A stretch of 64,000 bases of DNA from Desulfosoma sp. (GTDB taxonomy: Bacteria > Desulfobacterota > Syntrophobacteria > Syntrophobacterales > DSM-9756). A program made the translations under genes and the position numbers. Below the pieces are notes generated by a model. The model was not told the origin of the DNA. It ran no database searches and saw only the letters and a program-made list of their open reading frames with translations. The stretch is taken from assembly GCA_037481835.1 (NCBI GenBank), contig JBBFKW010000016.1:32001-96000 (forward strand). Reading direction: 5' to 3'. Shown here one piece after another: positions 30,551-47,906 of this stretch (positions are counted from its first letter, which is position 1; every line of letters starts with the position of its first letter).

Positions 30551-31272
30551 GCGACGGATTCTCCCAGGTAGGCTTCGATGACAGCGGGATTTTGGGCCAC
30601 TTCCTCTGGAGCGCCTTCGGCGATCTTTTGGCCGTAGTTCAGGACCACCACCCGGTCGCTGATGTTCATGATGACGCGCATGATGTGTTCCACGATGATG
30701 ATGGTGAGACCACGGGCTCGCAGGCTGAGAATGAGCTGCACCGTGCGGTCGGCTTCTGTGGGGTTGAGCCCCGCGACGACTTCGTCGAGCAGGAGCAGGG
30801 ACGGTTCCAAGGCCAAAGCCTTGCTGATTTCCAGGCGCTTTCTGCCGGCAAGGGTGAGGGTTGAGGCCTGATCCCGAGCTCTGTCCGCCAAACCCGTAAA
30901 TTCCAAAATGTCCCACGCATGACGCTCCGCATCCTGCCGGCGGGGGTGCTTGAGCAAGGCCGCTACCACAACATTGTCCAAGACCGTCAACCCGGTGAAG
31001 GGCTTGACGATCTGGAAGGTCCGCCCGATGCCGAGCCGCGCCAGGTTATACGGAGGCAGGCCCGTGATGTCCTGTTCGCGAAAAAAGACTCGCCCCAGCG
31101 TGGGCCTGTAGTAACCGCTGATGAGATTGAACAAGGTGGTTTTCCCGGCGCCGTTGGGCCCGATGAGGCCGAGAATTTCCTGGGGAGCAACCGTGAAACT
31201 GACAGCCTCCACGGCGTGCAGACCGCCGAAGACTTTGGAGACGGAATCCACGCGAAGCATGGGCTCAGCCAT
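30547..31272 (-). CDS. LIV-type ABC transporter ATPase (LivG-like)
   Basis: GPNGAGKTT, GRTFQ, LLLDE, VEH. Confidence 0.93.
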   Translation of the reverse strand: MAEPMLRVDSVSKVFGGLHAVEAVSFTVAPQEILGLIGPNGAGKTTLFNLISGYYRPTLGRVFFREQDITGLPPYNLARLGIGRTFQIVKPFTGLTVLDNVVVAALLKHPRRQDAERHAWDILEFTGLADRARDQASTLTLAGRKRLEISKALALEPSLLLLDEVVAGLNPTEADRTVQLILSLRARGLTIIIVEHIMRVIMNISDRVVVLNYGQKIAEGAPEEVAQNPAVIEAYLGESVA

Positions 31273-32254: not shown

Positions 32255-32257
32255 GAA

Positions 32258-33142
32258 TCAAACTCCCTTCCTGAAGAGCCCAGTGGGTGAGATGAGCAAG
32301 ATCGCGTAAAGAATGGCGAAGACGGCCAAGAGCGTATAAGCCGGGCTGAGGTAGATGAGGAAGAAGGATTGCACGAAGCCGAGGAGAAAGGCGGCCCACG
32401 GGACGCCCGCCAAATAGCCCATTCCCGCCAAGACGACGACGAAAAAGGCGAAGACCGTGAGATCGGGGCCCATTTGGGCGCTGATGGAAAAAATGCACCC
32501 GAAAATGGTTCCCGTCATGGCACTGATGGCCACATAGAGCCCGTAGACATGGGAACTGACACGCTTGGCGTTGATTCCCATGAGTCCCGCCGATTCCTTG
32601 TGCTGGGCCAGGGCCTGGACGGCAAGGCCGAAATCGGTCTTTTTCAGCAGGTAATGAAGGCCCACGGTCACCGCCAAGGCATAGCTCAAGCCTGCAAAGC
32701 GAATCACGGGGATGGTCACGAAGAAATTGCCGGATTGAAAGAACCAGGACCCTTTAGCGAGGGCGGACGAAATGGATCGGGAAAAGAAACCGAACCCCGT
32801 CAAAGCCAGCCCTCGAAACATAAGCGCCAAACCGAAGGTGAACACCAACCCCATCAAGACGGGGTTCCCCCGACGACCGCTGAGGACGCGATGGATGAGC
32901 GGCTGCAGGCAAAACCCGACGATGTAGAAAACCAAGAAAATGATCGGCAGATAGAGGAAAGGTTCCCAGCCGAACCATTGGTTCAGGTAATAACCGAGGA
33001 AGGCGCCCAACATGATCCATTCGCCAACAGCGAAGTCAATGATGTGCATGACGCCGTAGGCGAGGGAAAAACCGATGGCGATGGTGATGTAGATGCCTCC
33101 GATGAGGAGCCCATCCACGATGGCCTGTGGCAAAAGCAGCAT
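32258..33142 (-). CDS. LIV-type ABC permease (LivH-like)
   Basis: GLLIGGIY..AIGFSLAYGVM, KTDFG, GIN. Start after GGAG. Confidence 0.9.
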   Translation of the reverse strand: MLLLPQAIVDGLLIGGIYITIAIGFSLAYGVMHIIDFAVGEWIMLGAFLGYYLNQWFGWEPFLYLPIIFLVFYIVGFCLQPLIHRVLSGRRGNPVLMGLVFTFGLALMFRGLALTGFGFFSRSISSALAKGSWFFQSGNFFVTIPVIRFAGLSYALAVTVGLHYLLKKTDFGLAVQALAQHKESAGLMGINAKRVSSHVYGLYVAISAMTGTIFGCIFSISAQMGPDLTVFAFFVVVLAGMGYLAGVPWAAFLLGFVQSFFLIYLSPAYTLLAVFAILYAILLISPTGLFRKGV

Positions 33143-33266
33143 GATGCGGCAACTCCGGATCGGGTTAATGTCCGGATCGGACCTGGACCCGCGACGCAGA
33201 CCTGAGGCGGGGATCCGCAAACCGTGGCTCGCGGGCCGTCGAAGACCTTCGGCGAGATTGACGGCA

Positions 33267-33298
33267 GGAGGGGCACGGTTCATGCGCCGTGCCCCTCC
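33267..33298. repeat. REP-like palindrome between the SBP and permease genes
   Basis: ggaggggcacgg-N8-ccgtgcccctcc, 12-bp perfect stem. Confidence 0.6.
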
Positions 33299-33350
33299 AC
33301 GGCCTAAGGTTCACGAGCCCGCAACGCCACCGACACGGGGAAGGCGCCTC

Positions 33351-34589
33351 CTAGCGTTCCTTCCAGGCCTTCAGGGGGTAAATGGGCGCGTTTTCCGCAT
33401 GCTCCTTGGGGCCGACGATCTTCACATGGCCTCCTTGGATTTGAATGGTCAGCGGGGTCAGGCCCACGTTGGCGTGATAGTATTCCCCTTCGTCGGCGAA
33501 GTTGATCTTCCCGTAAAAGGTGTCGATATCCAGCTGTTCAAGGGCCTTAACCAGCGCCTCGCGTTCTTCTTCGGACAAGGGCGGTGTGGCCTTGATCTTC
33601 TGGACGGCTGCCTGGAAGGCAATGCCAGCTGCCGAAGACCCCGCTTGGGTGTAATCGGCGGGGACGTTAAAGGCCTTCAAGGCCGCCTGGGCATAAGTCG
33701 GAGCATCCGGCCAAATGAGGGTTCCGTGCGTCTTCAGGCTCCCCGTCCAGACGGATCCCCCGAAAACCCCTTCCGCGTCCTTTCCCAAGGCTTCGATGAA
33801 GGCAGGCTCCGTCACGCCGTAGTGCATCAAGAGGGCTTTGGGCGTGTAGTCGATTTGGCGGAGAGCCTTGACGAGGTTAATGAGTTCTTCATCGTGGCCG
33901 CCGAAGGCGATGAGGTCCGGCCGCGTGGCCTTGGCCACCGACATGTAGGGCGTGAGGTCTTGGCCCGCCGGGACGATGTCGAACTTCAAGACCTTGATGC
34001 CTCGGGCTTCGGCGGCGGCCTTGAAGGCTTCCGCGGTCGCTTTGGAAAAGGCGTCGTTGGATCCCAAGATAATGGCCGTTTTCGGTGCCGGATCAAGGGT
34101 CATAAGGGTTTCGATGGGCACGGACCCCGTGTAGTTGACCGGCGGGATGGTCCCGAAAGTGTAGCGGAACTTCTGCCGCCAAATGAGCGGCGATTCGGCG
34201 GATCCGGTGATCATCGGGATGCGGTACTTTTCCAATACGGGGGCGCAGGCAAGGGTGACCCCGGAAGAGTATGGCCCCAGGACGAAGTCGACCTTTTCCT
34301 GTGTTGCCAGGCGTTCTGCGGCAGACGCCCCGACGGCGGGTTCCGATTGGGCGTCGGCGTAGAAAAGCTTTACGGGGTATTTCTTCCCGTCGATTTCGAT
34401 CCCGCCCTGCTCGTTGACTGCCTGGGCCCACAAATCGTAGCCGCGCTTGGTCACGTTGCCGCCTGTGGCCAAGTCCCCGGAAAGGGAAGTGATGACCCCG
34501 ATCTTGAAAAAGTCCCGGGTTTCTTCGGCGCCGACGGAGCCGATAAAAGCGCAAACGAGGACGAGGCAAAAAACCAAAACTCTTTTCAT
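33351..34589 (-). CDS. Amino acid ABC transporter substrate-binding protein (LivK family)
   Basis: Signal peptide, KIGVITSLSG, VNEQGGI, LGPYSS. Confidence 0.92.
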   Translation of the reverse strand: MKRVLVFCLVLVCAFIGSVGAEETRDFFKIGVITSLSGDLATGGNVTKRGYDLWAQAVNEQGGIEIDGKKYPVKLFYADAQSEPAVGASAAERLATQEKVDFVLGPYSSGVTLACAPVLEKYRIPMITGSAESPLIWRQKFRYTFGTIPPVNYTGSVPIETLMTLDPAPKTAIILGSNDAFSKATAEAFKAAAEARGIKVLKFDIVPAGQDLTPYMSVAKATRPDLIAFGGHDEELINLVKALRQIDYTPKALLMHYGVTEPAFIEALGKDAEGVFGGSVWTGSLKTHGTLIWPDAPTYAQAALKAFNVPADYTQAGSSAAGIAFQAAVQKIKATPPLSEEEREALVKALEQLDIDTFYGKINFADEGEYYHANVGLTPLTIQIQGGHVKIVGPKEHAENAPIYPLKAWKER

Positions 34590-34751: not shown

Positions 34752-36632
34752 TTAGGGCATAGGGCTGTTCAGTCTTTGGGGGCGGTCCGATCCCAGGCCG
34801 TATTTTTTCATTTTTCGGGACACCGTGGACTGGTTGATGCCCAGCTTTCTCGCAACGGTCCACTGCGAGCCGTAGGTTTCCAGGGCCCTGGTCAGAATGC
34901 GGTATTCGGCGGCTTCCAGGAGGGCTTTGAGAGAGGTGCCTTCCAGGGGGATCTCTTCGGCCCCTTCCCGGTCCCCTGGGCGGCACACGACGTTTTGGGG
35001 CAAATCGTCCAGCCGGATAGGGTTGTTTTCGCACATCACCGCAAGACGCTCGCACAGGTTGACCAGTTCTCGGACGTTTCCCGGATAGTCGTAGGCGGTG
35101 AGCGCATCCGCCGCCTCCCGGCTCAATCGAAGGGCCGGCTTTTGGAGTTTGGTGCAAAAACGTTCCAGATAGTGCTGAAGCATGGGAAAGATGCACTCCC
35201 GCCGTTCCCGCAAGGGGGGGATCCACAAGGGGATGACGTTCAGGCGGTAATAGAGGTCCTTTCGGAATTCACCTCGATCAACCATGGCAGCCAGGTCTCG
35301 GTTCGTGGCAGCAAGGATGCGCACATCCAACTTGCGGCTCGTGGTCCCGCCGACCCGGGTGATTCGCCCGTCTTCCAAAAAGCGCAGGAGTTTCACTTGG
35401 GACGCTAGGGGCAGTTCGGAAACTTCATCCAGAAGAAGGGTTCCTCCGTCGGCCGCCTCGAAATAGCCGGGCTTGCCGCTCTGGCGGGCTCCGGTAAAGG
35501 CGCCGCGTTCGTAGCCGAAAAGTTCCGCCTCGATGAGGGTTTCCGGAATGGCACCGCAGTTGATGCGAATCATGGGGTGCTGGGCGCGGGGAGAAAACTT
35601 GTGGATAATGTCCGCAATCAGGCCCTTGCCAACGCCGGATTCGCCATGGAGGAGCACGGTGGAGTCGACGGCGCTCACCTTCAAGGCTTGGTGCAACACG
35701 TTGACCATGGCAGGGCTTCGCGCGATGATCTCATGGTCGTGAAGGCGCGCCAGCTGCATGTCCACGATCTGGTTTTTGTATTGGTCCTTGAGGGCTTTTT
35801 CCTGTTCGAGGCTCTTGTAGAGGGCGTCGATTTCCGTGATGTCCCGTTCGTTGACGACGATGAGGGACAATCGACCGCTCTCGTCAAAGACGGGGCTTCC
35901 GGTAAGCATGAGTTTGCGGCCATTTCGGGTGTTTTGAAGGAGGTTGACGACGCGGCCCGTGCGGATGACTTCCAAGGTGGCCGAACAATCCACAAGGCCT
36001 TCTTCCACCAGCTGCCGCATGTTCCGGCCCACCACATCCTGGGCCTTCAGGGCATTAAGGCGTTCCGAGGCGCGGTTGATCCGCAGAACGGTTCCCTCGC
36101 CGTCACAAATCCAGAGCCCGTCGTAGGAGGAGTCGATGATGGCGTCCAGTTCGCGGGAAAGGTTCTGGTAGGACAACAGGGCGCGGGTCACGTCCTCCAA
36201 TTGCAGGCTGTTTTGGAAATGGCACAAGACACCCGGACCGAAGGGGGGACTTTCGAGGGGGCTGATGCGCACCATATAGCGAATTGCGCGGGCATCCTGA
36301 ATACATCCATACCGAACGGCGCCGTCCCTCAGCGTGGCGGACGCTTCGTGCCACACAGCCGGAAAGATCGTTTCAAGATTCGCTCCTTCGGCGATCCCTA
36401 GAAGTTCCCGGCAGGCTTTGTTGACCACGGTGATCGTCTTGGAGGGGTTTGCGGCCAAAAGAGGGTCCCCCATGGCGTCCAAGAGCCGCATGCCGAGGTC
36501 GTCCCAAGGGCGGTCGGATTCCTTTTCCGTCGGTACGTGGGAAAAATATGCTTTCGCCGAGGCCTCCACCACCGTGCGCTCCATCTGGAAGGAAGAAATC
36601 GTCCTTATCAAGTCCGCTCTGGCCCATGCCAT
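34752..36632 (-). CDS. PAS-domain sigma54-dependent activator (bEBP)
   Basis: GESGVGK, GAFTGA, LLDEV, YPGNVREL, C-terminal HTH, PAS domains. Confidence 0.95.
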   Translation of the reverse strand: MAWARADLIRTISSFQMERTVVEASAKAYFSHVPTEKESDRPWDDLGMRLLDAMGDPLLAANPSKTITVVNKACRELLGIAEGANLETIFPAVWHEASATLRDGAVRYGCIQDARAIRYMVRISPLESPPFGPGVLCHFQNSLQLEDVTRALLSYQNLSRELDAIIDSSYDGLWICDGEGTVLRINRASERLNALKAQDVVGRNMRQLVEEGLVDCSATLEVIRTGRVVNLLQNTRNGRKLMLTGSPVFDESGRLSLIVVNERDITEIDALYKSLEQEKALKDQYKNQIVDMQLARLHDHEIIARSPAMVNVLHQALKVSAVDSTVLLHGESGVGKGLIADIIHKFSPRAQHPMIRINCGAIPETLIEAELFGYERGAFTGARQSGKPGYFEAADGGTLLLDEVSELPLASQVKLLRFLEDGRITRVGGTTSRKLDVRILAATNRDLAAMVDRGEFRKDLYYRLNVIPLWIPPLRERRECIFPMLQHYLERFCTKLQKPALRLSREAADALTAYDYPGNVRELVNLCERLAVMCENNPIRLDDLPQNVVCRPGDREGAEEIPLEGTSLKALLEAAEYRILTRALETYGSQWTVARKLGINQSTVSRKMKKYGLGSDRPQRLNSPMP

Positions 36633-36744
36633 ATCGCATAGCCTATGCCGAAGCGCATGGTCAAGCCTGGTGTGTGGGGACGTTTCTTGCAGCGCCTTTT
36701 GCGCTTGACTGGCCTAGGCCTTCAGGCATGGCGAGCGGCGAGTA

Positions 36745-36761
36745 TTGGTATGCTCCTTGTT
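36745..36761 (+). promoter_or_regulatory. Possible sigma54 promoter for gabT-aor (variant -12)
   Basis: TTGGTATGCTCCTTGTT = GG-N10-GT. Confidence 0.35.
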
Positions 36762-36820
36762 AGGTGAGCGGTTCGGCACCTTTTCCGTTGCACGATCCTG
36801 CCTTGAGAAAGGAGTTCAGC

Positions 36821-38125
36821 ATGACCGGATTGTCAAGCGCTCTAATCGAAAGAAGAAACCGCAACGTTCCTCAGGGACCTTTCAATGTGACGCCGGCTTT
36901 CATCAAAGAAGCCCGAGGGGCCGTCTTGATCGACGTGGATGGCCGGGAACTCATCGACTTTGCAGGCGGCATTGGTGTCATGAATGTCGGCCATTCCCAT
37001 CCCAAGGTGGTGGCCGCCTTGAAGGATCAGGCGGAGAAGTTCACGCACACCTGTTTTCACGTGGCCATGTATGAACCCTACGTGGCGCTTGCCGAACGGT
37101 TGAATGCTCTGGCCCCGGGCGATTTTTCCAAGATGACCCTCTTTGCCAACAGCGGTGCGGAGGCGGTGGAAAACGCGGTCAAAATCGCTCGATACGCGAC
37201 GCAAAGGCCGGCCGTCATTTGCTTTGAAAACGGCTTTCACGGTCGAACGCTGCTCACCATGACGCTGACCAGCAAGGTCAAACCCTACAAGCTGGGTTTC
37301 GGGCCCTTCGCTCCGGAAGTCTATCGCATGCCCTATGCCTACTGTTACCGATGTCCGTTCCGTCTGCATTACCCCGGCTGCGACGTTGCCTGCGCCGATT
37401 ACCTTGAAGAGTTTTTCATCTCCCATGTGGCTGCGGAATGCACGGCGGCCGTCATCGCCGAACCCATTCAGGGAGAGGGGGGATTTGTCACGCCACCTCC
37501 GGAATATTTCGCCAAACTTCAAAGGATTTGCCAAAAATATGGCATCCTGCTTATCATCGACGAAGTCCAATCGGCCATGGGCCGCACGGGAAAACTCTTC
37601 GCCATCGAACACTGGGGCGTCGTTCCCGACCTGATGACCCTCGCCAAGAGCTTGGCGGCGGGCATGCCGTTGAGCGCCGTGGTCGGTCGGGCCGAACTCA
37701 TGAACAAACCCCACGTGGGCGGCCTGGGCGGCACCTACGGCGGGAACCCTCTGGGATGCCGGGCGGCTCTGGCCGTGCTGGAAATCCTCTTGGACGACGG
37801 CCTGCTCAAGACGGCCGAAGCCTTGGGCGCAAAGGTCCGAAGCGCCTTCAACCGGTTGCAGGAGTCCTACGAAATCATCGGGGATGTGCGGGGCAAGGGG
37901 CCCATGCTCGCCATGGAACTGGTCCGGGACCGGGAAACCAAGGAACCGGCGACGGACGAGGCCAAGAAACTTGTGAATCTCTGCTACCAAAAAGGGCTTG
38001 TGCTGCTTAGCTGCGGCAATTTCGGAAATGTCATCCGAACCCTGATGCCTCTCGTGATCACCGATGAACAATTGGATCGGGGCATGGCCATCTTGGAAGA
38101 ATCCTTGAGGGAACTGACCCGTTGA
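36821..38125 (+). CDS. gabT: 4-aminobutyrate/5-aminovalerate aminotransferase (class III PLP)
   Basis: IDFAGGIGV, NSGAEAVENAVKIAR, FHGRT, EPIQGEGG, DEVQ, AKSL, GGTYGGNP. Confidence 0.92.
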   Translation: MTGLSSALIERRNRNVPQGPFNVTPAFIKEARGAVLIDVDGRELIDFAGGIGVMNVGHSHPKVVAALKDQAEKFTHTCFHVAMYEPYVALAERLNALAPGDFSKMTLFANSGAEAVENAVKIARYATQRPAVICFENGFHGRTLLTMTLTSKVKPYKLGFGPFAPEVYRMPYAYCYRCPFRLHYPGCDVACADYLEEFFISHVAAECTAAVIAEPIQGEGGFVTPPPEYFAKLQRICQKYGILLIIDEVQSAMGRTGKLFAIEHWGVVPDLMTLAKSLAAGMPLSAVVGRAELMNKPHVGGLGGTYGGNPLGCRAALAVLEILLDDGLLKTAEALGAKVRSAFNRLQESYEIIGDVRGKGPMLAMELVRDRETKEPATDEAKKLVNLCYQKGLVLLSCGNFGNVIRTLMPLVITDEQLDRGMAILEESLRELTR

Positions 38126-38193
38126 AGACCCAAGGGTCTGAATGAAATATGGGAACGGCATTAGATGGCTTCGGGCAAGTAAAAGGGGGGCGT

Positions 38194-39948
38194 ATGAAAG
38201 GGTTTTTCGGCCGCTATCTCGTGATTGATGTGAAGGAGACCCGGTGGGACGTGGTGCCGCTGGACGAGGCGCTTCTTCGCCGCAGTCTTGGAGGAAAGGG
38301 GCTGGCCACCCGGTTGCTTTTGGAAAGAAACCCCGCAGGGGTCGATCCCCTGTCGCCCGACAACCACCTCATCTTTGCCCTGGGTCCGGCAAGTGATACG
38401 GCCGTCTACGGCTCCTGCCGGCACGGGATCTTTGCCAAATCCCCCCTGACGGGGTTTTACGGCGAGTCCTATTCCGGAGGGCGGGTGGCCATTCCCATGA
38501 GCCGCACGGGTTACGACGCCATAGTGATCCGAGGGGCGTCCGCATCTCCCGTGTGGCTTGAAATTTCGGATATGGAGGTGCGCTTCCACGACGCCTCCGA
38601 CCTGTGGGGCCTGGACACCTTTGAGACGGAAGACCGCGTGCTGGAAAGAGCCGGAATGGACGGGGCGGGCGCCGTGGTCATCGGTCCTGCCGGGGAAAAT
38701 TTGGTCCGCTACGCCGTTGTGGAAAACGACTACTGGCGGTCGGCGGGACGCTGCGGCATGGGGGCGGTCCTCGGATCCAAGAAGATCAAAGCCGTGGTGT
38801 TTCACGGCACGCGATCGCGGCCGGTGGCCGATGAAGAAGGCATCAAGACCTACGCTCGAGAAATGGTCAAGAATCTTAAGGACCACAAGGCGACCCAGGC
38901 GTACCGCACCCACGGCACGCCCATGATGGTGGCTTTGCTCAACACGGTGGGAGGGTTCCCCACCCGGTACTGGGCCAAAGGCACCTTCGAACATTGGAAG
39001 AAAATCAGCGCCGAAATCCTGGTGGATCGGTTGGGGGCACGCCCCAAGGCGTGCCGCACGTGCTTCATGGGGTGCGGTAAGTATGTGGAAATCCAGGAGG
39101 GCCGCCACAAGGGGCTAAAGATCGAAGGGCCCGAATATGAAACCATTTATGCCTTCGGCGGCCTGTGCGAAATCGATGCGCTGGATGAAATCGCCCACCT
39201 GAACGATCTGTGTGACCGTCTGGGCATGGACACCATCACGGCGGGAAACATGGCGGCCTTTGCCATCGAAGCCTCCCGACGCGGCGTGATCCGCGAGCGG
39301 CTCGATTATGGGGACGTGGACGCCATCGCCGATCTCCTGGTAAAAATCGCCAAACGGGAAGGAATCGGCGATCTCCTTTCCCAGGGAATCCGTCCGGCGG
39401 CCGCGGAGCTCAAGCTGGAAGAGCTGGCCGTGCACGTCAAAGGCTTGGAACCCGCCGGCTATGACCCCCGTGCCCTCAAGGGCATGGGCCTGGCCTACGC
39501 GGTGAGCGACCGCGGAGCATGCCACCTTCGGGCCACATTTTACAAAGCCGAACTGGCCGGGTTGATCGATCCCCAAAAGATCGAAGGGAAAGCCGAGCTT
39601 TTTTTGGATTTCGAAGACCGATGCACGCTCTTTGACTGCCTTGTCCTGTGCCGTTTCTACAGGGATTTTTACCCTTGGGAGGAGCTTGCTAAGATCATTG
39701 AACTGACCACGGGCGAACACATGGAAAAGGCCGATCTGCAGAAGATCGCCTCCTTTGTTGTGGACAGTGCGCGCCAATTCAATCTGCGGGAAGGTCTGAC
39801 CGCGGCCGACGATCGCCTTCCCCGAAGGCTTCTCGAGGAGCCTTTGGAAGACGGCCGACGCATCACCCAAGAAGAAATGCAGCGGCTCGTCCAAGATTAT
39901 TATCGGCTCAGAGGCTGGAATTCCCAAGGCGTGCCGTCCGTGACATAG
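38194..39948 (+). CDS. aor: Aldehyde:ferredoxin oxidoreductase family (W/Mo)
   Basis: KSPLTG, IGPAGEN, GAVLGSKKIKA, CRTCFMGC, EGPEYET, DRLGMD, RGACH. Confidence 0.93.
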   Translation: MKGFFGRYLVIDVKETRWDVVPLDEALLRRSLGGKGLATRLLLERNPAGVDPLSPDNHLIFALGPASDTAVYGSCRHGIFAKSPLTGFYGESYSGGRVAIPMSRTGYDAIVIRGASASPVWLEISDMEVRFHDASDLWGLDTFETEDRVLERAGMDGAGAVVIGPAGENLVRYAVVENDYWRSAGRCGMGAVLGSKKIKAVVFHGTRSRPVADEEGIKTYAREMVKNLKDHKATQAYRTHGTPMMVALLNTVGGFPTRYWAKGTFEHWKKISAEILVDRLGARPKACRTCFMGCGKYVEIQEGRHKGLKIEGPEYETIYAFGGLCEIDALDEIAHLNDLCDRLGMDTITAGNMAAFAIEASRRGVIRERLDYGDVDAIADLLVKIAKREGIGDLLSQGIRPAAAELKLEELAVHVKGLEPAGYDPRALKGMGLAYAVSDRGACHLRATFYKAELAGLIDPQKIEGKAELFLDFEDRCTLFDCLVLCRFYRDFYPWEELAKIIELTTGEHMEKADLQKIASFVVDSARQFNLREGLTAADDRLPRRLLEEPLEDGRRITQEEMQRLVQDYYRLRGWNSQGVPSVT

Positions 39949-40272
39949 GGCAAACCCATGGATGACCATAGTAAAAGGATTTAAACCTTGCCATCACGGG
40001 GGCTGTTCCTAGGACCAAACGACAAAGTTTCTTTCAAGGTCGCCAGAATCCAGGGACAAATAAAGCACTGGCGAAATTCGAGAGAATGACTGGGCGATAT
40101 ATATGGGGAATTTCCCCCGTAAAAAACCGTCATCAGGATATTCCCGCTCACTATATCAACACCAGTCGTCAGTTGATGGCTTGGATCGTCAACGTGTACA
40201 GCATGCGGCGTTTTATAACTTTTGCAGGCTCCGCCTGTTCTCACAAGATAAATATCCCTGCAACAGCACAGG

Positions 40273-40560
40273 TTGGAAAATTCGGAAACCTTGGCTGTCA
40301 TGCTGACAGGCATGTATCTGACGAAGGATATTTTGCAAAAAACTATAAATGGTGCCGACATTCTAGCCAACGCTGGCGGGGCCTGCGTATCCTATTTCGA
40401 AGCGATTCAAAATGTTCGTCAGCTTTTACAGACAGAAAGCGATACCAACGCGTCCATCAAATCAAGAAAAGAGCCTTTCAAGGAGGCTGCACTGTCACTA
40501 TTCGGGGAAAAGTATGCATTTGTACGGCTGCCCACATACGCCATTCAGCACGTGGTGTGA
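40273..40560 (+). pseudogene. Degraded C-terminal remnant of a Glu/Leu/Phe/Val dehydrogenase
   Basis: DILANAGGACVSYFEAIQN matches the GDH motif PDILANAGGVxVSYFEWxQN; upstream frames are broken. Confidence 0.6.
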
Positions 40561-40650
40561 GCGAAAAAGCCGCGAGGGACGTTTTCGTGGCAATGGCATA
40601 GGCGCTCTACTTTGTTGATCTCTCAGTGTCATCCAAAAGAGGAGAGCATT

Positions 40651-41148
40651 ATGAAATCAGGACTACCAATCGAATTGGTCGTTCCGGTGCTGGCCGCACT
40701 ATCGTGCCTTTTAATGAAGGTGGGAGGAGGCCTTCCTGTTTGGGCGGTCTTTCTTGGATGGGCGTGGTATTTTGCTATGGGAGCCACTCCCTCGATTTTA
40801 AAAAAGATTTATCCCGCAGTGATACCTGGATCAGTTCTTGGCGGGCTCTGTCTTTGGCTCATTGGAGCACTGCACAATCTAGGAATTGGGGGCATGCCCG
40901 GCATTATGCTGGCAGTGTTCGTTACCGTATTTATTCTCATGCTTTTCCTGAGGATACCATTAACCAGTGCCGGTCTTCCTGCTTTTAATGCCTACTCTAC
41001 TGTGTTTGCGCTTTATGCTATTCCCAATGGATTTCCTTCTATTGGGGGCAACCCGATTTTAGGCTGTATCGTTTGGGGTATGATAGCCAATTTTCTCGGT
41101 CCTGTGTTCGGTTTTTTAAGTATTTATTTATTGTTCAAGAAAGAATGA
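40651..41148 (+). CDS. DUF1097 family membrane protein
   Basis: GAGGAG SD; WAVFLGWAWYFAMG; about 5-6 hydrophobic helices. Confidence 0.75.
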   Translation: MKSGLPIELVVPVLAALSCLLMKVGGGLPVWAVFLGWAWYFAMGATPSILKKIYPAVIPGSVLGGLCLWLIGALHNLGIGGMPGIMLAVFVTVFILMLFLRIPLTSAGLPAFNAYSTVFALYAIPNGFPSIGGNPILGCIVWGMIANFLGPVFGFLSIYLLFKKE

Positions 41149-41221
41149 TGGTCTATAAAAGTCCTTTGTGCTTCGTCGATGCTTTCCATTTTGTTTTTCC
41201 GCAAAGGCTAGGAGTATGTCC

Positions 41222-41974
41222 ATGAAAGTAGATATTAACGCTGATGTTGGAGAAAGTTTCGGTCTCTATCGTATGGGTAATGACGAAGAATTTATGCAGT
41301 ACATCACAAGTGCCAATGTTGCCTGTGGGTTTCATGCCGGGGATGCCACCGTCATGCATAGGACCGTGCTCCTGGCAAAGAAATACGGTGTACAGATCGG
41401 TGCTCACCCGGGGTTGCCCGACCGCCAAGGGTTTGGCCGACGTGAGATGAACTGCAGCATTGAGGAAATTTATGACGACGTTATGTATCAGGTTGGAGCG
41501 TTGAAGGCTTTCGTTGAAGCTTCGGGAATGAGATTGCATCATGTGAAGCCTCACGGCTCACTCTATGGCATGGCCAATCGTCGGGCTGAAGTTGCTGAAG
41601 CCATTTGCCAAGTGATCCTTGATGTCGACCCGAAAATGTATTTCTACACGATGAAAAAAGGCCTTGTTGGACAAGTTGCCCGGAAGATGGGCGTGCGGGT
41701 TGTGTTCGAGCTCTATGGAGATTTGGAATACGACCCCGAAGGGAATCTCGTCATTACAAGGCATCATGAGGCTCAGAAACCCAATGCCGTTGCCGCTAAA
41801 GTTCTAAAAATGGTGCAGCACGGCAGAGTTACGGCGACGGACGGGAGCGAAATTGCCATTGAAGGGAGTTCCGTGTGTCTCCACTCGGATACGCCGGACG
41901 CAGTTGAGATTCTCAGGGCTGTGAACCAGGGCCTAAGGGAAGCAGGCTTTTTACTAGAATCTCCTCCTCTATAA
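41222..41974 (+). CDS. pxpA: LamB/YcsF (PxpA) family protein
   Basis: DINADVGESFG, SANVACGFHAGD, GAHPG, HVKPHGSLY, CLHSD. Confidence 0.93.
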   Translation: MKVDINADVGESFGLYRMGNDEEFMQYITSANVACGFHAGDATVMHRTVLLAKKYGVQIGAHPGLPDRQGFGRREMNCSIEEIYDDVMYQVGALKAFVEASGMRLHHVKPHGSLYGMANRRAEVAEAICQVILDVDPKMYFYTMKKGLVGQVARKMGVRVVFELYGDLEYDPEGNLVITRHHEAQKPNAVAAKVLKMVQHGRVTATDGSEIAIEGSSVCLHSDTPDAVEILRAVNQGLREAGFLLESPPL

Positions 41975-42148
41975 GTAGGGGATCAACCCGCTTGGATCGC
42001 CTCATGCTGAACCGATTATTCCACGTGAGGACATGCATAAGCACGGTAATGTCCTTTGCAGCTAAAGGTGCCCCACAGAAAGCGTGTTTTAAATGATGGA
42101 AATTGAATTAAAGATTGTAAACATTCTGTAGACGGGAGGATGACGATT

Positions 42149-43135
42149 ATGAGCAGGGGAAAATATCACGTCATACTCGATACGATGCCCGAAACTCCAT
42201 CGAGGTTGGAAATCCTTTTCCGACAGGCTGGAGATGGTTTCCTGCAGGTGGAATATGGACGGGAGCCGCGCGCTGCCCTACAGGATTCCTTTAGAATTTT
42301 GGCGGTGAATGACATCATCCGCGATAAAAAAATCAAAGGGCTTATTGAAACAGTTCCTGGACTTCGAACAAATCTTTTTCACTACGATCCTGAGATTTTG
42401 TCAGTCAAAGAGCTAATTGAGCAAATTAAAGAAGCTGAAGATTCAATGCCGACCATCGATGATGTTGTTTTGAATTCCAGATTGATTCATCTTCCCATAG
42501 CTTTCGAAGACAGCGAGACGAAAAAAGCGGTTGAAAAATATGTGAGAGAAGTGAGGCCGGACGCGCCTAATGTCATAAACGGATACAATCTTGAGTATAT
42601 CGCTCTTTGTAATGGGGTAACGGTGGAGGAAGCGAAAGGAATGATTTTGGGTACGGAATGGTTTAACAGCGGATGTGGTTTTTGGCCCGGAGGGGCATTC
42701 CTATGGCCCATGGATCCGCGGTGCGCATTGGTGGTCCCCAAATACAATCCCCCCCGAACATGGACCCCGGAAGGCGCCGTGGGGATCGGTGGACCTTGCG
42801 TGTTTACTTACACGACACCGACGGGCGGTGGGTATCAGCTTTTCGGACGGACAATCCCGACATTTCAATTCGCCTGTAAACACCCGATTTTCAAAAACGG
42901 CCCATTCCTCTATCGACCGGCGGACCGCGTGAAATTCCATGAGGTTAGTGAGCAGGAGGTGCTGAATATTTTTGAACATGTCCATGATAAAACGGACTAT
43001 ATATATCAGATCGAAGAAGGGCAGGTGGTTGCCAAAGATTACCTGAAATGGGTACAAAGCGAAGATGTTCAGAAAGGTGTTGAGCAATTAAAGGCAAAAC
43101 AGGCCGAGGGTGTGAGAAAAGCTCCGCGGCTTTAG
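42149..43135 (+). CDS. Carboxyltransferase subdomain C/D (urea carboxylase type, PxpB-like)
   Basis: RQAGD..LQVEYG, PKYNPPRTWTPEGAVGIGG, GGYQLFGRT; about 330 aa. Confidence 0.85.
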   Translation: MSRGKYHVILDTMPETPSRLEILFRQAGDGFLQVEYGREPRAALQDSFRILAVNDIIRDKKIKGLIETVPGLRTNLFHYDPEILSVKELIEQIKEAEDSMPTIDDVVLNSRLIHLPIAFEDSETKKAVEKYVREVRPDAPNVINGYNLEYIALCNGVTVEEAKGMILGTEWFNSGCGFWPGGAFLWPMDPRCALVVPKYNPPRTWTPEGAVGIGGPCVFTYTTPTGGGYQLFGRTIPTFQFACKHPIFKNGPFLYRPADRVKFHEVSEQEVLNIFEHVHDKTDYIYQIEEGQVVAKDYLKWVQSEDVQKGVEQLKAKQAEGVRKAPRL

Positions 43136-43165
43136 AAATCTAAAAAAGAGAAAGGAGTTTCATCC

Positions 43166-44149
43166 ATGTTAAAAATTTTGAATCCCGGAATAGAAGTTTT
43201 AGTTGAAGACTGGCCCGGTCGGCTTGGGTATTTGGGTATGGGGATGTCTGCGTCGGGAGCATTTGATAACGTAGCCCTTGGCTTGGGAAATATTCTGGTA
43301 GGAAATCCTCCCGGCGAGGCAGGCTTGGAAATTACGGGCGGTTTCTTGGAAGCCCAGTTCGGGGAGGATACCGTCATTGCCGTGACTGGAACCGATATGC
43401 AACCGACCCTTAACAATGAACCTTTTCCCATGTGGCAATCGGTTAGAGTGTCTCGAGGAGATGTGATTAGATTCAAGCATATCGGGCCGTACGGGTTTCG
43501 AAGTTATTTGGCCATAGCCGGTGGCATTGATGTGCCGGTATATCTCGGCAGCAAATCTACGTGTATTTTCGGAGGGTACGGCGGCTTTCAAGGGCGCAAG
43601 CTGGCGGCAGGGGACGAGCTCCGATTGGGGAGGCCAAGTGCTTCCTTAAGTGAACTGGCGGATCGAAAGCTTAAGCCTGGGGTGCAGCCGCAATACGAAC
43701 GTGAATGGCGACTTCGAGCGATACCCGGACCGAACACGTGCCCTGATTACGTCACCGAAGAAGGGATGGATCTTCTGTTTTCCAAATCCTTCAAGATCAA
43801 TCACAACTCCAATCGTTCTGCCTATCGTCTGGATCCCTTGCCCGACAGCTTCTTTGCTCGGCCTGACGGCGGGGTAGGTGGGAGCCATCCATCCAATATC
43901 CTGGATCATGCTTATGCCATTCGGGGGGCCTTAAATGTTTGCGGAAACACGCCGATTTTGCTCATTGCCGACGGCCCCACCCTCGGCGGTTATATCTGCT
44001 GCCTAAACGTCATTAACGCTGATTTGTGGAAGATTGGCCAGGGTGCTCCCGGTCGTGATTTTATTAAGTTTGACTACGCAGATCAGGAAACGGCGACACA
44101 AGCACGGATAGCTCAGAAGAAGCTTCTCAGTGAGGATTCCTTAGCTTAA
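43166..44149 (+). CDS. Carboxyltransferase subdomain A/B (PxpC-like)
   Basis: DWPGRLG, SGAFD, GLEIT, RSYLAIAGG, GSKST, GGSHPSNI, DGPTLGGY. Confidence 0.88.
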   Translation: MLKILNPGIEVLVEDWPGRLGYLGMGMSASGAFDNVALGLGNILVGNPPGEAGLEITGGFLEAQFGEDTVIAVTGTDMQPTLNNEPFPMWQSVRVSRGDVIRFKHIGPYGFRSYLAIAGGIDVPVYLGSKSTCIFGGYGGFQGRKLAAGDELRLGRPSASLSELADRKLKPGVQPQYEREWRLRAIPGPNTCPDYVTEEGMDLLFSKSFKINHNSNRSAYRLDPLPDSFFARPDGGVGGSHPSNILDHAYAIRGALNVCGNTPILLIADGPTLGGYICCLNVINADLWKIGQGAPGRDFIKFDYADQETATQARIAQKKLLSEDSLA

Positions 44150-44183
44150 GGTCTTACAGATAACAACTTATAGGAGAGTGTCC

Positions 44184-44402
44184 ATGGAAAAAACTGTTAA
44201 TGCAATTATGCCGGGATTGACCGCACGCGTGGTGGTGAACGTGGGAGATAGAGTGGCAAGAGGCCAGGAGGTGGCCGTCATTAACTGCATGAAAACCGAA
44301 ATTCCCGTTGTGAGCGAGGATGATGGGGTCGTTAAACAAATCCTTGTAAAGGAGTGGGATGAGCTCCAGGTGGGGGATCCCATGGTGGTTTTAGAAGTAT
44401 AA
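44184..44402 (+). CDS. Stand-alone biotin carboxyl carrier protein
   Basis: 72 aa biotinyl fold, V.VGD.V...CMKTE...GVVKQILVK. Confidence 0.8.
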   Translation: MEKTVNAIMPGLTARVVVNVGDRVARGQEVAVINCMKTEIPVVSEDDGVVKQILVKEWDELQVGDPMVVLEV

Positions 44403-44409
44403 ACCCGGA

Positions 44410-45759
44410 ATGGTATCTATGAACATGATCAAAAAACTCCTTGTGGCCAACCGTGGTGAAATCGTCCGCCGCATTATCCGAACGTGCCGAGAAATGGGCG
44501 TTCAAACGGTTGCTGTGTTTTCGGAAGCAGATCGCGGGGCTGCTTATGTGACCGATGCAGACCAGGCTGTTTGTATCGGTCCTGCGAATCCTCTGCAGAG
44601 TTATCTGAACATCGATGCCCTTTTGGATGCGGCGCGAAAAACGGGGGCCGATGCGGTTCACCCCGGGTACGGTTTTCTTTCGGAGCGCGGTGCGTTCGCA
44701 GAGGCCGTAGAGAATGCCGGGATGATTTGGGTCGGTCCCCCATCAAAACTCCTGCGCAGGATCAGTTCTAAGTGTGCGTGCAGGCAGATTGCGAGTGAGG
44801 TGGGGGTGCCAGTCGTGCCAGGTACGCTGAAACCGGTTGCCGATCCTGAGGAAATTTTAAAATATGGAAGGCGGCATGGATACCCCCTTTTCCTAAAGCT
44901 CGACAAAGGAGGTGGGGGCAAAGGTATTTCGAGGATTAACGGCCCCGAGGATGTGGAGCGAGTCTTCAAGCAGGCGAGCAGTATTGGAAGTGTGGCTTTT
45001 GGATCTTCGGACTGCTATTTAGAGCATGTCGTGGCAAAGCCTCGCCACATTGAGGTCCAGTTTGTGGCGGACAAGCACGGCAACTGTGTTTGTCTCGGAG
45101 AGCGCGAGTGTTCCATTCAACGACGAAATCAAAAAATTATAGAGGAGGGTCCATCGCCTGCGGTCTCCCCAGAAGAGCGAGCCCTGTTATTCGATTGGAC
45201 CAGGCGGATTGTGCTCCGTATGGGATACCACGGGGCAGGAACGATCGAAGGGCTTCGGTCCGCGGATGGGAGCTACTATTTCATGGAAATAAATGCCCGC
45301 CTGCAGGTGGAACATGCGGTGAGCGAGTTCATAACAGGCCTTGACATTGTCAAGTGCCAGCTTGAAATATCTTGCGGGATGCCGCTCAGTTTTGTTCAAG
45401 AGGAAGTTAGCCTTAGCGGACACGCTATCGAGGCGCGAATTTACGCCGAAGACCCCGAAACCTTCATGCCTTCACCGGGCATTATCAAAAGACTCAGTCT
45501 TCCCGCAGTTAATAATTGCCTGAGGATCGACCATGCCCTTGCAGAAAACACAACTGTTCCCCCATATTACGATCCCCTCCTCGCCAAGGTCGTTGCTTGG
45601 GATGGGAATCGGCCAGCGGCCATTGGGCGACTAACCGAGGCGCTCAAGCGTATTGAAATTGAAGGGATTAAGACCAACATTCAAACGAGCCTGAAGGTCC
45701 TAAGTAGTGAGTTGTTTCTGCGCGGTGAGTATGACACCTCGTTTTTGAGTGGAGAATAA
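44410..45759 (+). CDS. Biotin carboxylase subunit
   Basis: VANRGEI, HPGYGFLSE, GGGGKG, ERECSIQRR, EINARLQVEH, YYDPLLAK. Confidence 0.92.
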   Translation: MVSMNMIKKLLVANRGEIVRRIIRTCREMGVQTVAVFSEADRGAAYVTDADQAVCIGPANPLQSYLNIDALLDAARKTGADAVHPGYGFLSERGAFAEAVENAGMIWVGPPSKLLRRISSKCACRQIASEVGVPVVPGTLKPVADPEEILKYGRRHGYPLFLKLDKGGGGKGISRINGPEDVERVFKQASSIGSVAFGSSDCYLEHVVAKPRHIEVQFVADKHGNCVCLGERECSIQRRNQKIIEEGPSPAVSPEERALLFDWTRRIVLRMGYHGAGTIEGLRSADGSYYFMEINARLQVEHAVSEFITGLDIVKCQLEISCGMPLSFVQEEVSLSGHAIEARIYAEDPETFMPSPGIIKRLSLPAVNNCLRIDHALAENTTVPPYYDPLLAKVVAWDGNRPAAIGRLTEALKRIEIEGIKTNIQTSLKVLSSELFLRGEYDTSFLSGE

Positions 45760-45913: not shown

Positions 45914-47476
45914 GTTGAATCCGTGACGGCTAAGGGAATGAGCCTCTATGGAGCCCTGGGAGAACCTTTTTGAGCACCACGGCGGTCGATTGACATCAGA
46001 ATCGGACGCCGCAGCCGTCAAATCCGGTTGATGTATGACGGAGCAATAAATTGTGCCTCTTTGGGACGCACTTCCCCCTTTAAGACACTTCGGGGTGTCT
46101 GTGTTTACCGGCCCCCTCATGGGGGTTTTAGGCCAGGCAGAATTTTACAAAGAGCCTTCGAAAGGGTGCATACCCCGAACGATGCCGCCCGAATTGAAGC
46201 TCGATGAGCCGTCCCGTGTGAATCACCCGGGCCGCAAGGACGATGAGTTCCTGGATGACGGTTCCAATGCGCCGCCTTTTGGCAGGATGGCGAACCGGGG
46301 CGTCGTCTCCCAGAAGGCCTTCCTCGCCGATTATCCGAAGAACATTGTCAACCATCGCCCCAAGAGTCAGCACCAAGGCGTTGATGGAAAACTTTCCCGA
46401 GGGCAGCCGCTCCAAATCCAGGTCCGTTTTGATTTCACTATGAAACGGCTCGCTCAGACCCCGGTTTTCGTAAAGAACGATGATGTCTTCTTCAGGAAGA
46501 TGCACGTTCGTCTACCATCCTTCGAGCTCGATAACCGGCTCAAGAAGCCTCTGTCCCTTGGCGTCGGCCGTCCTGATCGTAACCCGAATTACCAACCGAT
46601 AATGCTCAAGCCTGCCCTCGTGGTTTCGGGGTATCGACACGCTCAAAAGCCCCAGCTGCTTTCCGGAACTCCGCTGGCCTACGCACCCTTCGGTGGAGAC
46701 TTTCTGTGCCCAATGGGCCCGATTCGCTCTTCGTGGATTTCATTTGACGATAAAGGCGGTGATCTCATGGGCCGAAAGTTCCGCTCGGGTCTCCACAGCA
46801 TCATGAGCCGCATCAAGCCTCACGAGAAGGGGCTTTTCGGTCAACCGGCGGGCGTTGTCCAAGGTCCCTCGCAAGAAAGGCACAAACCCGTTCTGGGAAT
46901 GCTGACTCCCCTCCCGCAGCTCAACCCCGAGGCACCATCCCTCCGATCCCAGGTAGGCCCCAATGGGCGCATAGCCGTCATAGCCCTGGGAGGTTCGAGA
47001 AACGCCCTCTTTTTGGGTCTTGGAATTGTCCAAGCAGAAAACATCCACGTCCAAAGCCACGTGGCCAGTAGGAAGCTCCGTTACGGGAATGTGGACGTTC
47101 TCCAGAAGCTCCACTGCCAATGGCCTCCCGGAACCACGCGTCCTTGCTCACTCCACGGACGGCCTGAAAATCGCTCCTGCCCGTTGCCAACACCCCGAGG
47201 GAGGTTTTCATCACGTCCTTGTGCGGGGTTTTGGGATACCCCCAACCCCATCCTGTTCTGGAAGAGCGTCGTGTAGTTATTGACCCGCGCCCCGAAAAGG
47301 GCCAGACCTGATTACTGTAGATGACCTTGGAGGATTGATCGATCTCGATCTGTTCATCATTGAACCTTCAGAGTGAGTTAAATACTGTAACGTCTATGCC
47401 ATAAAAAGCTAGATAAGTCAACCTCGTGAATGGCATATTATACTTTTATGGATAGGTCTTCTTTCACGGATTCAGG
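45914..47476 (-). mobile_element. IS1380-family insertion sequence, decayed
   Basis: Terminal IRs gtTGAATCCGTGA (45914-45926) and TCACGGATTCAGG (47464-47476) enclose transposase fragments. Confidence 0.8.
46128..47360 (-). pseudogene. IS1380-family DDE transposase, multiply frameshifted
   Basis: Fragments in several frames: GLALFG, TGRSDF, LDVDVFCLDNSKTQKEGVSRT..GYAP, RLDAAHD, HSEIKTDLDLERLPSGKF. Confidence 0.85.
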
Positions 47477-47489: not shown

Positions 47490-47906
47490 ATGATGCATCA
47501 AATTGAAGGGCGTTTCAAAATCCTTGTGGGGTACGACGGGACGCGGACAGCGAAAGAGGCCCTGAACGTGGCCTTGTTTCATGCGCGACATTTTCATGCG
47601 GAGGTGCATGTGGCCTGGTCCCTCACGGGAGGTCAAAGCACTTCGGCGGAAGAAATCGACACCGCCCGGGATGGACTCCACCATGTGGAAGATCTGTTCG
47701 GGGAGGCCCAGATCCCCTGTCAAACCCATCTCCTGATCCGGGGGCTTTCCCCGGGAGAGGATTTGGTGCGGTTCGCTGAAGAGCATGCGGTGGGGGAAAT
47801 CATCATCGGGGTCCGACGCCGTTCCCAGGTGGGAAAGCTTCTTTTCGGCTCCACAGCGCGCTACGTGATCCTCAACGCCCCCTGCCCCGTTGTCAGCGTC
47901 AAGTAG
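47490..47906 (+). CDS. Universal stress protein
   Basis: ILVGYDG, IIIGVRRRSQVGKLLFGSTARYVILNAPCPVVSV. Confidence 0.92.
   Translation: MMHQIEGRFKILVGYDGTRTAKEALNVALFHARHFHAEVHVAWSLTGGQSTSAEEIDTARDGLHHVEDLFGEAQIPCQTHLLIRGLSPGEDLVRFAEEHAVGEIIIGVRRRSQVGKLLFGSTARYVILNAPCPVVSVK

Follow-up and report, generated by a model that had tools for sequence, protein, structure and literature searches.

Can a strict anaerobe open an unstrained lactam with ATP and pass the product to a ferredoxin-linked oxidation? This question is raised by a locus of Desulfosoma sp. (assembly GCA_037481835.1, genome 99% complete) within a stretch of 64,000 nt, contig JBBFKW010000016.1, positions 32,001-96,000 of the forward strand, which is called the window here. 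In this locus, a transaminase gene (gabT) and an aldehyde:ferredoxin oxidoreductase (AOR) gene (aor) are followed by five genes for LamB, the carboxyltransferase subdomains C/D and A/B (CT_CD and CT_AB), a biotin carboxyl carrier protein (BCCP) and a biotin carboxylase (BC). These five are referred to as the module. In the present study, the comparative evidence led us to propose that the split urea-carboxylase-type biotin enzyme, together with LamB, would open an unstrained lactam, most likely 2-pyrrolidone, to 4-aminobutyrate (GABA) at the expense of ATP, and that GabT and AOR would then act on the product. We give this reading a probability of about 0.6. The locus is composite: gabT and aor are native, and the module lies on a foreign island recently inserted behind aor. 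The genes that carry the argument are the following.

36764-38125 (likely ATG 36822, behind AAAGGAG), plus strand: gabT, 4-aminobutyrate:2-oxoglutarate transaminase type (Aminotran_3, E 2e-134)
38149..39948, plus strand: aor, tungsten-type AOR (Pfam AFOR_N and AFOR_C)
40074..40586, plus strand: gdh pseudogene, glutamate dehydrogenase (GDH), from tblastn with the GDH of locus L087; Pfam ELFV_dehydrog fragment in 40273-40560
40612-41148 (likely ATG 40652), plus strand: DUF1097 small membrane protein (Pfam), four hydrophobic spans in a Kyte-Doolittle scan
41168-41974 (likely ATG 41216), plus strand: LamB/YcsF (PxpA-type) hydrolase subunit (Pfam LamB_YcsF)
42140..43135, plus strand: CT_CD (Pfam), with a C-terminal extension as in urea carboxylase and Lys201 in KYNPPRTWTPE
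43166..44149, plus strand: CT_AB (Pfam)
44178..44402, plus strand: BCCP, minimal, 74 residues (Biotin_lipoyl), biotinyl-lysine motif CMKTE, Lys39
44410..45759, plus strand: BC, ATP-grasp (Biotin_carb_N, CPSase_L_D2, Biotin_carb_C), 457 bits to the BC part of TIGR02712

An earlier sequence-only reading had named these genes, with a sigma54-dependent activator and an ABC (ATP-binding cassette) importer adjoining, and Pfam and the open reading frame (ORF) listing place every one of them as it had described, co-oriented on the plus strand from gabT to BC. None of the five enzyme ORFs is interrupted, and each can be aligned with its orthologues over the whole length. The gdh remnant is in pieces of different frames (40074-40292 and 40357-40586, equal to residues ~162-229 and ~380-457 of a 458-residue GDH), its N-terminal third and middle being gone. 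The window gabT passes the NCBIfam equivalog for GABA transaminase, TIGR00700, with 566 bits against a cut-off of 506.65, and the gabT of Clostridium ljungdahlii likewise exceeds it.

What kind of enzyme is formed by the five subunits? Both CT subunits found their best NCBIfam and PDB matches in urea carboxylase. The CT_CD scored 231 bits with the urea carboxylase model TIGR02712 versus 53 bits with PxpB (TIGR00370, cut-off 145.55), and the CT_AB scored 295 bits versus 176 bits with PxpC (NF045499, cut-off 500); the urea carboxylase equivalog, with its cut-off of 1303.85, was reached by neither. The CT domain of the Kluyveromyces lactis urea carboxylase (3VA7) was matched full length, at 479-798 and 824-1122, with 213 bits for CT_AB and 133 bits for CT_CD (its residues 12-312), including the C-terminal extension that is absent from PxpB-type proteins. 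Escherichia coli YbgK and YbgJ gave 117 bits (CT_AB) and 40 bits (CT_CD). Fused proteins named urea carboxylase have 40-46% identity to CT_AB, and 120 fused forms among the matches listed are prokaryotic or metagenomic.

The sequence-only reading had called for a phylogeny of the CT subunits, and this was run against urea carboxylases and PxpC. The quick maximum-likelihood tree of CT_A_B held 97 sequences (63 module ORFs of 300-345 residues together with the window, 21 plain PxpC and 12 urea carboxylase domains). In it, 63 module CT_AB proteins, the window's included, form one clade with a Shimodaira-Hasegawa-like approximate likelihood ratio (SH-aLRT) support of 99, sister to the 12 fused urea carboxylases (97) and apart from the 21 PxpC (96). 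Thus, as judged by alignment scores and tree, the CT subunits are a sister clade of the fused urea carboxylases and not of PxpBC. The module LamBs were split from plain PxpA by one branch with SH-aLRT 92, which is not strong.

The residues agree with this placement. In the K. lactis urea amidolyase (KlUA), K1605 is described as probably acting as general base in carboxyl transfer (PMC5770610), and it is the one residue among those binding urea that our comparison covered. Lys201 of CT_CD aligns with it, and the position is lysine in 58/58 module CT_CD and 12/12 urea carboxylases but arginine in 21/21 PxpB. In the CT_CD alignment, 54 positions invariant in urea carboxylases are also kept in the module. 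At 30 more positions both groups are invariant and yet different, as expected for another acceptor. The biotinyl M-K motif was present in all 75 BCCP matches of the comparison loci (CMK[TNVIM]E in 74 and SMKME in one). Hence an ATP-grasp BC, an M-K carrier and a full-length CT with the catalytic lysine are all found, as in a biotin carboxylase of the urea carboxylase type, and the label of a split LamA/urea-carboxylase-like enzyme given before is borne out by NCBIfam, PDB matches and tree, with the relatedness to LamA judged by domain make-up. By Pfam domain content, the parts of the LamA/LamB system are complete, as five genes rather than two. A complex prediction of CT_CD and CT_AB with LamB scored 0.00, in a run made without controls, which speaks neither for nor against such a complex.

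Does the module keep company with GABA genes in other genomes? The comparison set consisted of 80 loci, one genome per species, with CT_A_B identities of 57-82%, from Thermodesulfobacteriota and Bacillota plus one 1.6-kb contig binned as Methanothrix (L065); the module loci of three relatives are counted once, inside the 80. The main linkage set was the 53 module loci with at least 18 kb of sequence, and 21 plain pxpABC loci of the same order were used as controls. Linkage was counted by tblastn with the window proteins at a coverage of at least 50% (AOR at 50% identity or more; gabT sought within 10 kb). The gene-order survey had used a crude longest-ORF caller, in which antisense ORFs replaced some real genes in high-GC loci; for this reason the closest relative, L032, is missing from the trees, and the counts were taken from tblastn instead.

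LamB was found in 53/53 long module loci (19/21 controls), BCCP in 53/53 and BC in 51/53 (0/21 controls for both). A gabT-like aminotransferase accompanied the module in 31/53 long loci and 38/80 overall, and an AOR, with 52-60% identity to the window aor, in 12/53 and 16/80; neither occurred in the 21 controls. The sigma54 activator was present in 28/53 loci versus 1/21 controls. DUF1097 was found in 12/53 loci versus 0/21, and it follows the module in 19/80, all Bacillota. Biotin ligase genes adjoin the module in six loci and carbonic anhydrase in two.

These linkages come in at least seven different gene orders and two phyla. Several Desulfobacterota have the order activator, TorT-type ABC system, LamB, gabT, CT_CD, CT_AB, BCCP, BC, reductase of the old yellow enzyme (OYE) type, sometimes GDH, then AOR; in Pelotomaculum, gabT is divergent from AOR-CT_CD-CT_AB-LamB-BCCP-BC, followed by a membrane protein and the activator. 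The Clostridium order is PucR-gabT-CT_CD-CT_AB-BCCP-LamB-DUF1097, and in Lachnospiraceae gabT and an iron-type alcohol dehydrogenase (Fe-ADH) precede BC, CT_CD and so on. In L032 (82%), aor stands immediately before LamB, as in the window. Among 40 relatives of the window's organism, CT_A_B orthologues (67-69% identity) occur in three genomes only, all of another family. In the two of these with enough flank, the module adjoins gabT and a sigma54 activator at native GC. The window gabT has 68-72% identity to the module-adjoining gabT of loci L014 and L015, and activator relatives adjoining the module elsewhere have 35-46% identity to the window's activator. Given the control loci and the variety of gene orders, chance adjacency was rejected as a full explanation. 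Accordingly, the survey of gabT/aor co-occurrence that had been suggested gave a recurrent linkage, and the outcome that the sequence-only reading had named as refuting, with clusters elsewhere never joined to omega-amino-acid genes, did not come about.

Several further features of these loci were recorded. An unnamed protein of about 200 residues (201 in the family counted) with 4-5 hydrophobic spans (L054:13637-14242, L060:13734-14339 and 18 others) lies after BC or between BCCP and BC; it was present in 15/53 long loci versus 0/21 controls and in 20/80 overall, and matched nothing in Pfam at E <= 1 and nothing in NCBIfam. It occupies the position that DUF1097 has in other loci, which makes it a candidate substrate channel of an undescribed family. 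The Clostridium and Lachnospiraceae BC proteins are 653-668 residues long (L110:3378-5339, L074:6974-8938, L073:6061-8067), and their ~200 residues past the BC domains match no NCBIfam model at threshold. The Methanothrix-binned contig carries a CT_A_B (64%) and a BCCP, and in the tree it falls among records of Desulfomonilia and Syntrophales; misbinning is more probable here than an archaeal copy. Locus L051 has a second, very divergent CT_A_B (end branch 2.3), outside the module clade and beside a second TorT-type ABC system.

What would the enzyme do? The constant LamB, the gabT partner and the ATP requirement together point to an unstrained lactam that gives an omega-amino acid. In the proposed mechanism, BC would carboxylate biotin on the 74-residue BCCP using ATP and bicarbonate, and CT_CD/CT_AB would pass the carboxyl on to the nitrogen of the ring, much as urea is carboxylated by urea carboxylase, and Lys201 of CT_CD would serve as the base. 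LamB would then hydrolyse the N-carboxy-lactam, an activated imide-like species, and the resulting carbamate would release CO2 to leave GABA. The net reaction would be lactam + ATP + H2O to amino acid + ADP + Pi. Thereafter GabT would convert GABA to succinic semialdehyde and AOR would use ferredoxin to oxidise the semialdehyde to succinate. Regeneration of 2-oxoglutarate would have fallen to the lost gdh, and DUF1097, a putative substrate channel or permease, probably admits the small neutral substrate. The sequence of lactam opening, transamination and ferredoxin-linked oxidation put forward before is thus supported as a hypothesis by the linkage of gabT and AOR compared with controls.

The size of the product is indicated by loci in which the genes continue downstream. 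In L062, BC is followed by genes for 4-hydroxybutyryl-CoA dehydratase (675 bits to 1U8V of Clostridium aminobutyricum), 4-hydroxybutyrate CoA-transferase (515 bits to 3EH7), Fe-ADH and GabT, and by these predicted functions the locus runs on into a complete pathway for fermenting GABA via 4-hydroxybutyrate. Genes like that of the dehydratase, AbfD, also follow the module in L087 and L097, making 3/80 loci versus 0/21 controls. Since 4-hydroxybutyrate genes follow the module in these three loci, the product there would be C4. The window's genome gave no AbfD match, and therefore AOR would be the enzyme that oxidises succinic semialdehyde in this organism. In addition, HydA/HydB of the caprolactamase family adjoin the module in 4-5/80 loci versus 0/21 controls, a predicted neighbour that strengthens the lactam theme.

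How did the module come to stand behind aor in this genome? The GC drop at 39950, the dead transposase and the insertion nature of the carboxylase block were all absent from the sequence-only reading. The surroundings of the module are as follows.

29840..34589, minus strand: Liv-type ABC importer, five genes (Pfam: two ATPases, two BPD_transp_2 permeases and a Peripla_BP_6 binding protein at 33351-34589)
34752..36632, minus strand: sigma54-dependent activator, divergent from gabT, with an N-terminal region of no known family, PAS, AAA+ and helix-turn-helix (Pfam)
39949..~47430: island of ~7.5 kb, from the aor stop codon to usp, GC ~0.49, from the empty-site comparison
46128..47250, minus strand: dead transposase gene of an IS1380-like (DDE_Tnp_1_4) insertion sequence (IS), seen as Pfam fragments, with stops and frame changes in the three-frame translation
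47490..47906, plus strand: usp (Pfam Usp), the native right flank of the insertion site
48025-48109: tRNA gene, downstream of usp

The island holds DUF1097-LamB-CT_CD-CT_AB-BCCP-BC together with the decayed gdh and the dead IS. GC falls from ~0.59 to ~0.49 at 39950 and recovers past ~46000, and GC at third codon positions is 0.49-0.56 in the six island genes versus 0.61-0.73 in the activator, gabT, aor and usp. In the same-genus genome G002 (locus L029), the ABC-activator-gabT-aor block aligns to window position 39919 and the alignment resumes at 47512 after ~200 nt, an empty site, and hence 39949 to ~47430 is an insertion. The ABC importer common to both has 69-92% protein identity and is native, and gabT has 90% identity to that of G002. 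Orthologues of aor at 84-86% protein identity occur in all three same-genus genomes (G001-G003); this gene is native as well. The G002 orthologue (L019, G002:C11:46780-48540) has one in-frame TAA in the match and may be a pseudogene or reflect a sequencing error.

In G001 and G003, aor is kept, and the island and the ABC-activator-gabT block are both absent. There (window 29985-38004 compared, L028 and L030) aor directly follows DNA matching window ~29100-29985. The importer-activator-gabT block is itself variable, and it looks as if the locus grew around aor in two steps. The assembly would have started from the native aor, gained the ABC-activator-gabT block in common with one congener, and then received the module on the island of ~50% GC, which would have landed immediately after aor and brought no activator along. 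The only CT_A_B relative in G001-G003 is of the plain pxpC type with 38-40% identity. A copy of this type is also found in the window's genome on another contig, and since all four module-bearing genomes (the window's and the three relatives) retain one, the module was added to it rather than put in its place. In the CT_A_B tree, the window copy falls in a subclade of Desulfarculaceae and Desulfosarcinaceae-type records, away from the subclade holding Syntrophobacteraceae records, which fits a horizontal arrival of the island. No near-identical donor was found among the 80 loci, the best DNA match being 69%.

The aor/island junction is no assembly artefact. Run X1, which may be the source data, has a 13.6-kb contig that spans 35000-46148 with zero differences; an 812-nt contig of run X3, from a separate study, spans 39819-40630, again with zero differences; and the same DNA with the same junction occurs in several metagenomes. 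Over the dead IS (window 46022-47524), contigs end and the summed depth in X1 climbs from 57 to ~100, as expected of a repeat, which indicates a multi-copy IS. Depth was very high at 48.0-48.5 and 49.0-49.5 kb (window 48026-49528), reaching ~1190 in X1 and 850 in X6, and loose ends were numerous there; past the tRNA gene, these stretches have the look of repeats or of widely conserved sequence. In X3, the activator and gabT (window 35688-37768) are overlain by contigs with several differences at a depth of 22-25, and the island has a depth of ~6.5-7, which suggests a commoner related strain in that sample that may lack the island.

Is the island provided with signals for its expression? A candidate -24/-12 promoter at 36676..36691 on the plus strand, GGGGAC-N5-TTGCA, lies ~130 nt before the gabT ATG and is weak, with two mismatches to TGGCAC-N5-TTGCW. 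In the whole window, 29 matches at two mismatches were found versus 29.7 expected from shuffles, so this site alone is no evidence. In 36000-48000, scanning for sigma70 promoters and for terminators gave no more than chance would. The best NCBIfam model of the activator is PrdR, under its cut-off (387 versus 795). In the comparison set, TGGCA[CT]-N5-TTGC[AT] at up to one mismatch was found within 450 nt upstream of module genes in 20/80 loci and at 28/91 sites overall, counts that stand without a shuffled control; gabT is preceded by 11 of these sites, CT_CD by five and aor by three. Both arms of the divergent gabT / (aor-)CT_CD arrangement bear a sigma54-type site in L038, L059, L080, L095 and L105. 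In L059, an exact TGGCAC-N5-TTGCA precedes both CT_CD and the divergent gabT, and in L038, L080 and L095 the pairs are before aor and gabT, some with one mismatch.

The following points weigh against the lactam-to-GABA proposal. The support for it is comparative throughout and the substrate is one that we infer, and the N-carboxylation mechanism is drawn by analogy with urea carboxylase only. Within 10 kb, 22/53 long module loci have no gabT. Related loci are not independent samples; because of this, the comparison rests on the control loci and no further statistics were applied. The OYE-type reductases (14/53 long loci versus 0/21 controls) and the TorT-like binding proteins with their CUT2-type ABC system (14/53 versus 0/21) are left unexplained by a plain 2-pyrrolidone route and could mean an unsaturated or different ring. 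GabT enzymes commonly accept 5-aminovalerate as well, and consequently the ring size is fixed only where 4-hydroxybutyrate genes occur (AbfD in 3/80). As for expression, there is no sigma54 site at up to one mismatch in window 28000-48000, the island has no regulator gene and its gdh is dead, so that it may be poorly expressed or decaying, and no RNA run was found among the sequencing runs matching this DNA.

Several of these points lead to the first alternative, in which the same enzyme and mechanism would serve another ring amide or amide, for example delta-valerolactam (giving 5-aminovalerate and then glutarate semialdehyde), an OYE-reduced unsaturated lactam, a ureido compound or an imide. 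The breadth of GabT, the OYE or OYE-DPD-like reductases and the TorT-like proteins would suit it, and the caprolactamase-family neighbours suggest that several lactams are handled; the 30 altered CT_CD positions speak for a different acceptor without saying which. The diagnostic downstream genes, however, are all C4 (AbfD, CoA-transferase and Fe-ADH in L062, and AbfD in L087 and L097), no glutaryl-CoA pathway genes were found among the recurring neighbour families scanned, and ureides and imides are normally hydrolysed without ATP. We therefore regard this alternative as unlikely, although worth keeping in view.

A biotin-assisted 5-oxoprolinase would be a PxpABC variant that forms glutamate for deamination by GDH, with gabT and aor adjacent for some other reason. 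The LamB does pass the PxpA subfamily model NF003814 (312 versus a cut-off of 226), although it misses the PxpA equivalog models (273 versus 392), and an intact GDH neighbours the module in 4/53 long loci versus 0/21 controls (5/80 overall), with the remnant in the window. But GDH is equally expected near GabT, where it would regenerate 2-oxoglutarate. Of the marks of PxpABC, only the PxpA subunit is found; CT_CD and CT_AB lie under the PxpB/PxpC cut-offs and outside the PxpC clade, the lysine separates the module from the arginine of PxpB, and dedicated biotin components are present. The separate plain pxpC-type copy is kept beside the module in all four genomes, and gabT, AOR and the 4-hydroxybutyrate genes, none of which occurs in the 21 plain pxpABC loci, would be left unexplained. 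This explanation is improbable.

The island could also have landed by chance and be silent or decaying, with no pathway in this genome whatever the module does elsewhere. The block is indeed an insertion of foreign composition with a dead gdh and a dead IS, it is absent from the same-genus genomes, and no activator gene or -24/-12 site at up to one mismatch lies in or before it. To that extent the chance insertion which the sequence-only reading had allowed for is real here, but clusters elsewhere are linked to omega-amino-acid genes. Furthermore, the five enzyme ORFs and DUF1097 are full length while gdh and the transposase decayed, which fits selection; the island is co-oriented right behind gabT-aor with no predicted strong terminator between; the closest relative also has aor immediately before LamB; and the identical junction persists in several metagenomes. 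A chance landing with no pathway operating in this genome is improbable.

Finally, a true split urea or guanidine carboxylase for nitrogen assimilation, to which the best model matches and the public labels of relatives ('urea carboxylase' or 'allophanate hydrolase subunit 1') would point, is very improbable, because neither the equivalog nor the clade of urea carboxylase proper is reached, 30 positions invariant in those enzymes are altered, LamB is the partner in 53/53 loci, neither an amidase-type allophanate hydrolase nor urea/guanidine uptake or sensing genes appeared among the recurring neighbour families scanned (seven families that overlap core genes in antisense, with a few other small ones, lay outside the scan), and no guanidine or other riboswitch was found in the window.

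How does the proposed lactam-opening enzyme compare with known systems? In Aspergillus nidulans, LamA is a urea-carboxylase-like BC-CT-BCCP protein and LamB belongs to LamB/YcsF, and both are needed for the use of 2-pyrrolidinone via GABA. The parts list is the same as that of the module. LamA differs in being one fused chain in an aerobic fungus, whereas the module consists of five separate subunits in strict anaerobes and is linked onward either to an AOR that depends on ferredoxin or to the 4-hydroxybutyrate route. The fungal lamA/lamB genes share the AmdR regulon with gatA and gabA, two GABA genes, and their co-regulation with GABA transaminase and permease genes (PMC8016842) parallels the gabT linkage seen here.

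The downstream half of L062 agrees enzyme for enzyme with the GABA fermentation of C. aminobutyricum, whose textbook route consists of GabT, 4-hydroxybutyrate dehydrogenase, AbfT and AbfD; the window's genome differs in lacking an AbfD match, and AOR would take over the semialdehyde. PxpABC resembles the module in its LamB/PxpA hydrolase with CT_C_D and CT_A_B subunits and in the ATP-dependent opening of a five-membered lactam. Likewise, PP_2920-2, the PxpABC paralogue of Pseudomonas putida, is reported to be required for growth on butyrolactam (bioRxiv 10.1101/2021.12.09.472016). PxpABC nevertheless has no adjoining BC or BCCP (0/21 controls), its clades are separate from the module, and PxpB, of ~220 residues, is without the C-terminal extension and has arginine where the module and urea carboxylase have lysine.

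Urea carboxylase/urea amidolyase (K. lactis 3VA7, 5I8I) contains the closest CT relatives and has the same BC-BCCP-CT logic and catalytic lysine motif. It is a single fused chain, whereas the module is five genes, a distinct clade with 30 subfamily-specific CT_CD changes. Guanidine carboxylase works with other hydrolase subunits. The partner hydrolase of urea amidolyase is an amidase-type allophanate hydrolase (PMC5770610), whereas the module's partner is LamB. The caprolactamase CapAB and OplBA, described in PMC8453981 as driving the hydrolysis of unstrained lactams with ATP, perform the task proposed for the module, but they belong to an unrelated hydantoinase/oxoprolinase family without biotin; where their family adjoins the module, its members are neighbours and not relatives. 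The mycobacterial PxpC/PxpB-type pair MSMEG_0435/0436 also engages BCCP-bound biotin: by cryo-EM, it is reported to hold the biotin of the AccA3 BCCP in a pose suited to carboxyl transfer; urea carboxylase activity was not detected, and no substrate is assigned to it. This pair borrows the BC-BCCP of an acyl-CoA carboxylase, has no dedicated BC or BCCP genes and is nearer to PxpBC; the window CT_AB scored 100 bits to the MSMEG_0435/0436-type protein versus 213 to urea carboxylase.

The island with its empty site, the control loci, the lysine/arginine distinction and the 4-hydroxybutyrate and caprolactamase neighbours are new in this analysis. In the full-text literature, with most subscription journals outside coverage, neither a biotin-dependent lactamase of the split kind nor any lactam pathway of an anaerobe was found described. 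The family comprises 812 protein clusters at 90% identity (CT_CD E <= 1e-30, among near-length candidates), and public names of its members are generic or misleading, 'carboxyltransferase domain-containing protein' among them. More broadly, but tentatively and at somewhat less than even odds, we suggest that this is a large misannotated family with a new class of biotin-enzyme reaction, in which transient N-carboxylation acts as the activator and makes an uphill lactam hydrolysis ATP-driven, feeding a ferredoxin-linked or 4-hydroxybutyrate GABA pathway in strict anaerobes, with the window as a stepwise horizontal assembly around a native aor.

Since cultured and genetically tractable carriers exist (records of Clostridium ljungdahlii, Pelotomaculum propionicicum and Desulfoferrobacter suflitae are among the 80 loci), the lactam reading is directly testable. 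If it is true, an ATP-driven lactamase would be of interest to lactam and nylon-monomer biotechnology, and the use of stable lactams by anaerobes would be explained; butyrolactam is named among carbon sources reported to be abundant in root exudates. For the organism, the window would be a clean case of a catabolic pathway extended by an island landing beside genes that use its product. For the family, hundreds of genes labelled urea carboxylase, allophanate hydrolase subunit or 5-oxoprolinase subunit would receive a function, and one more reaction type would be added to the short list of biotin-dependent enzymes.

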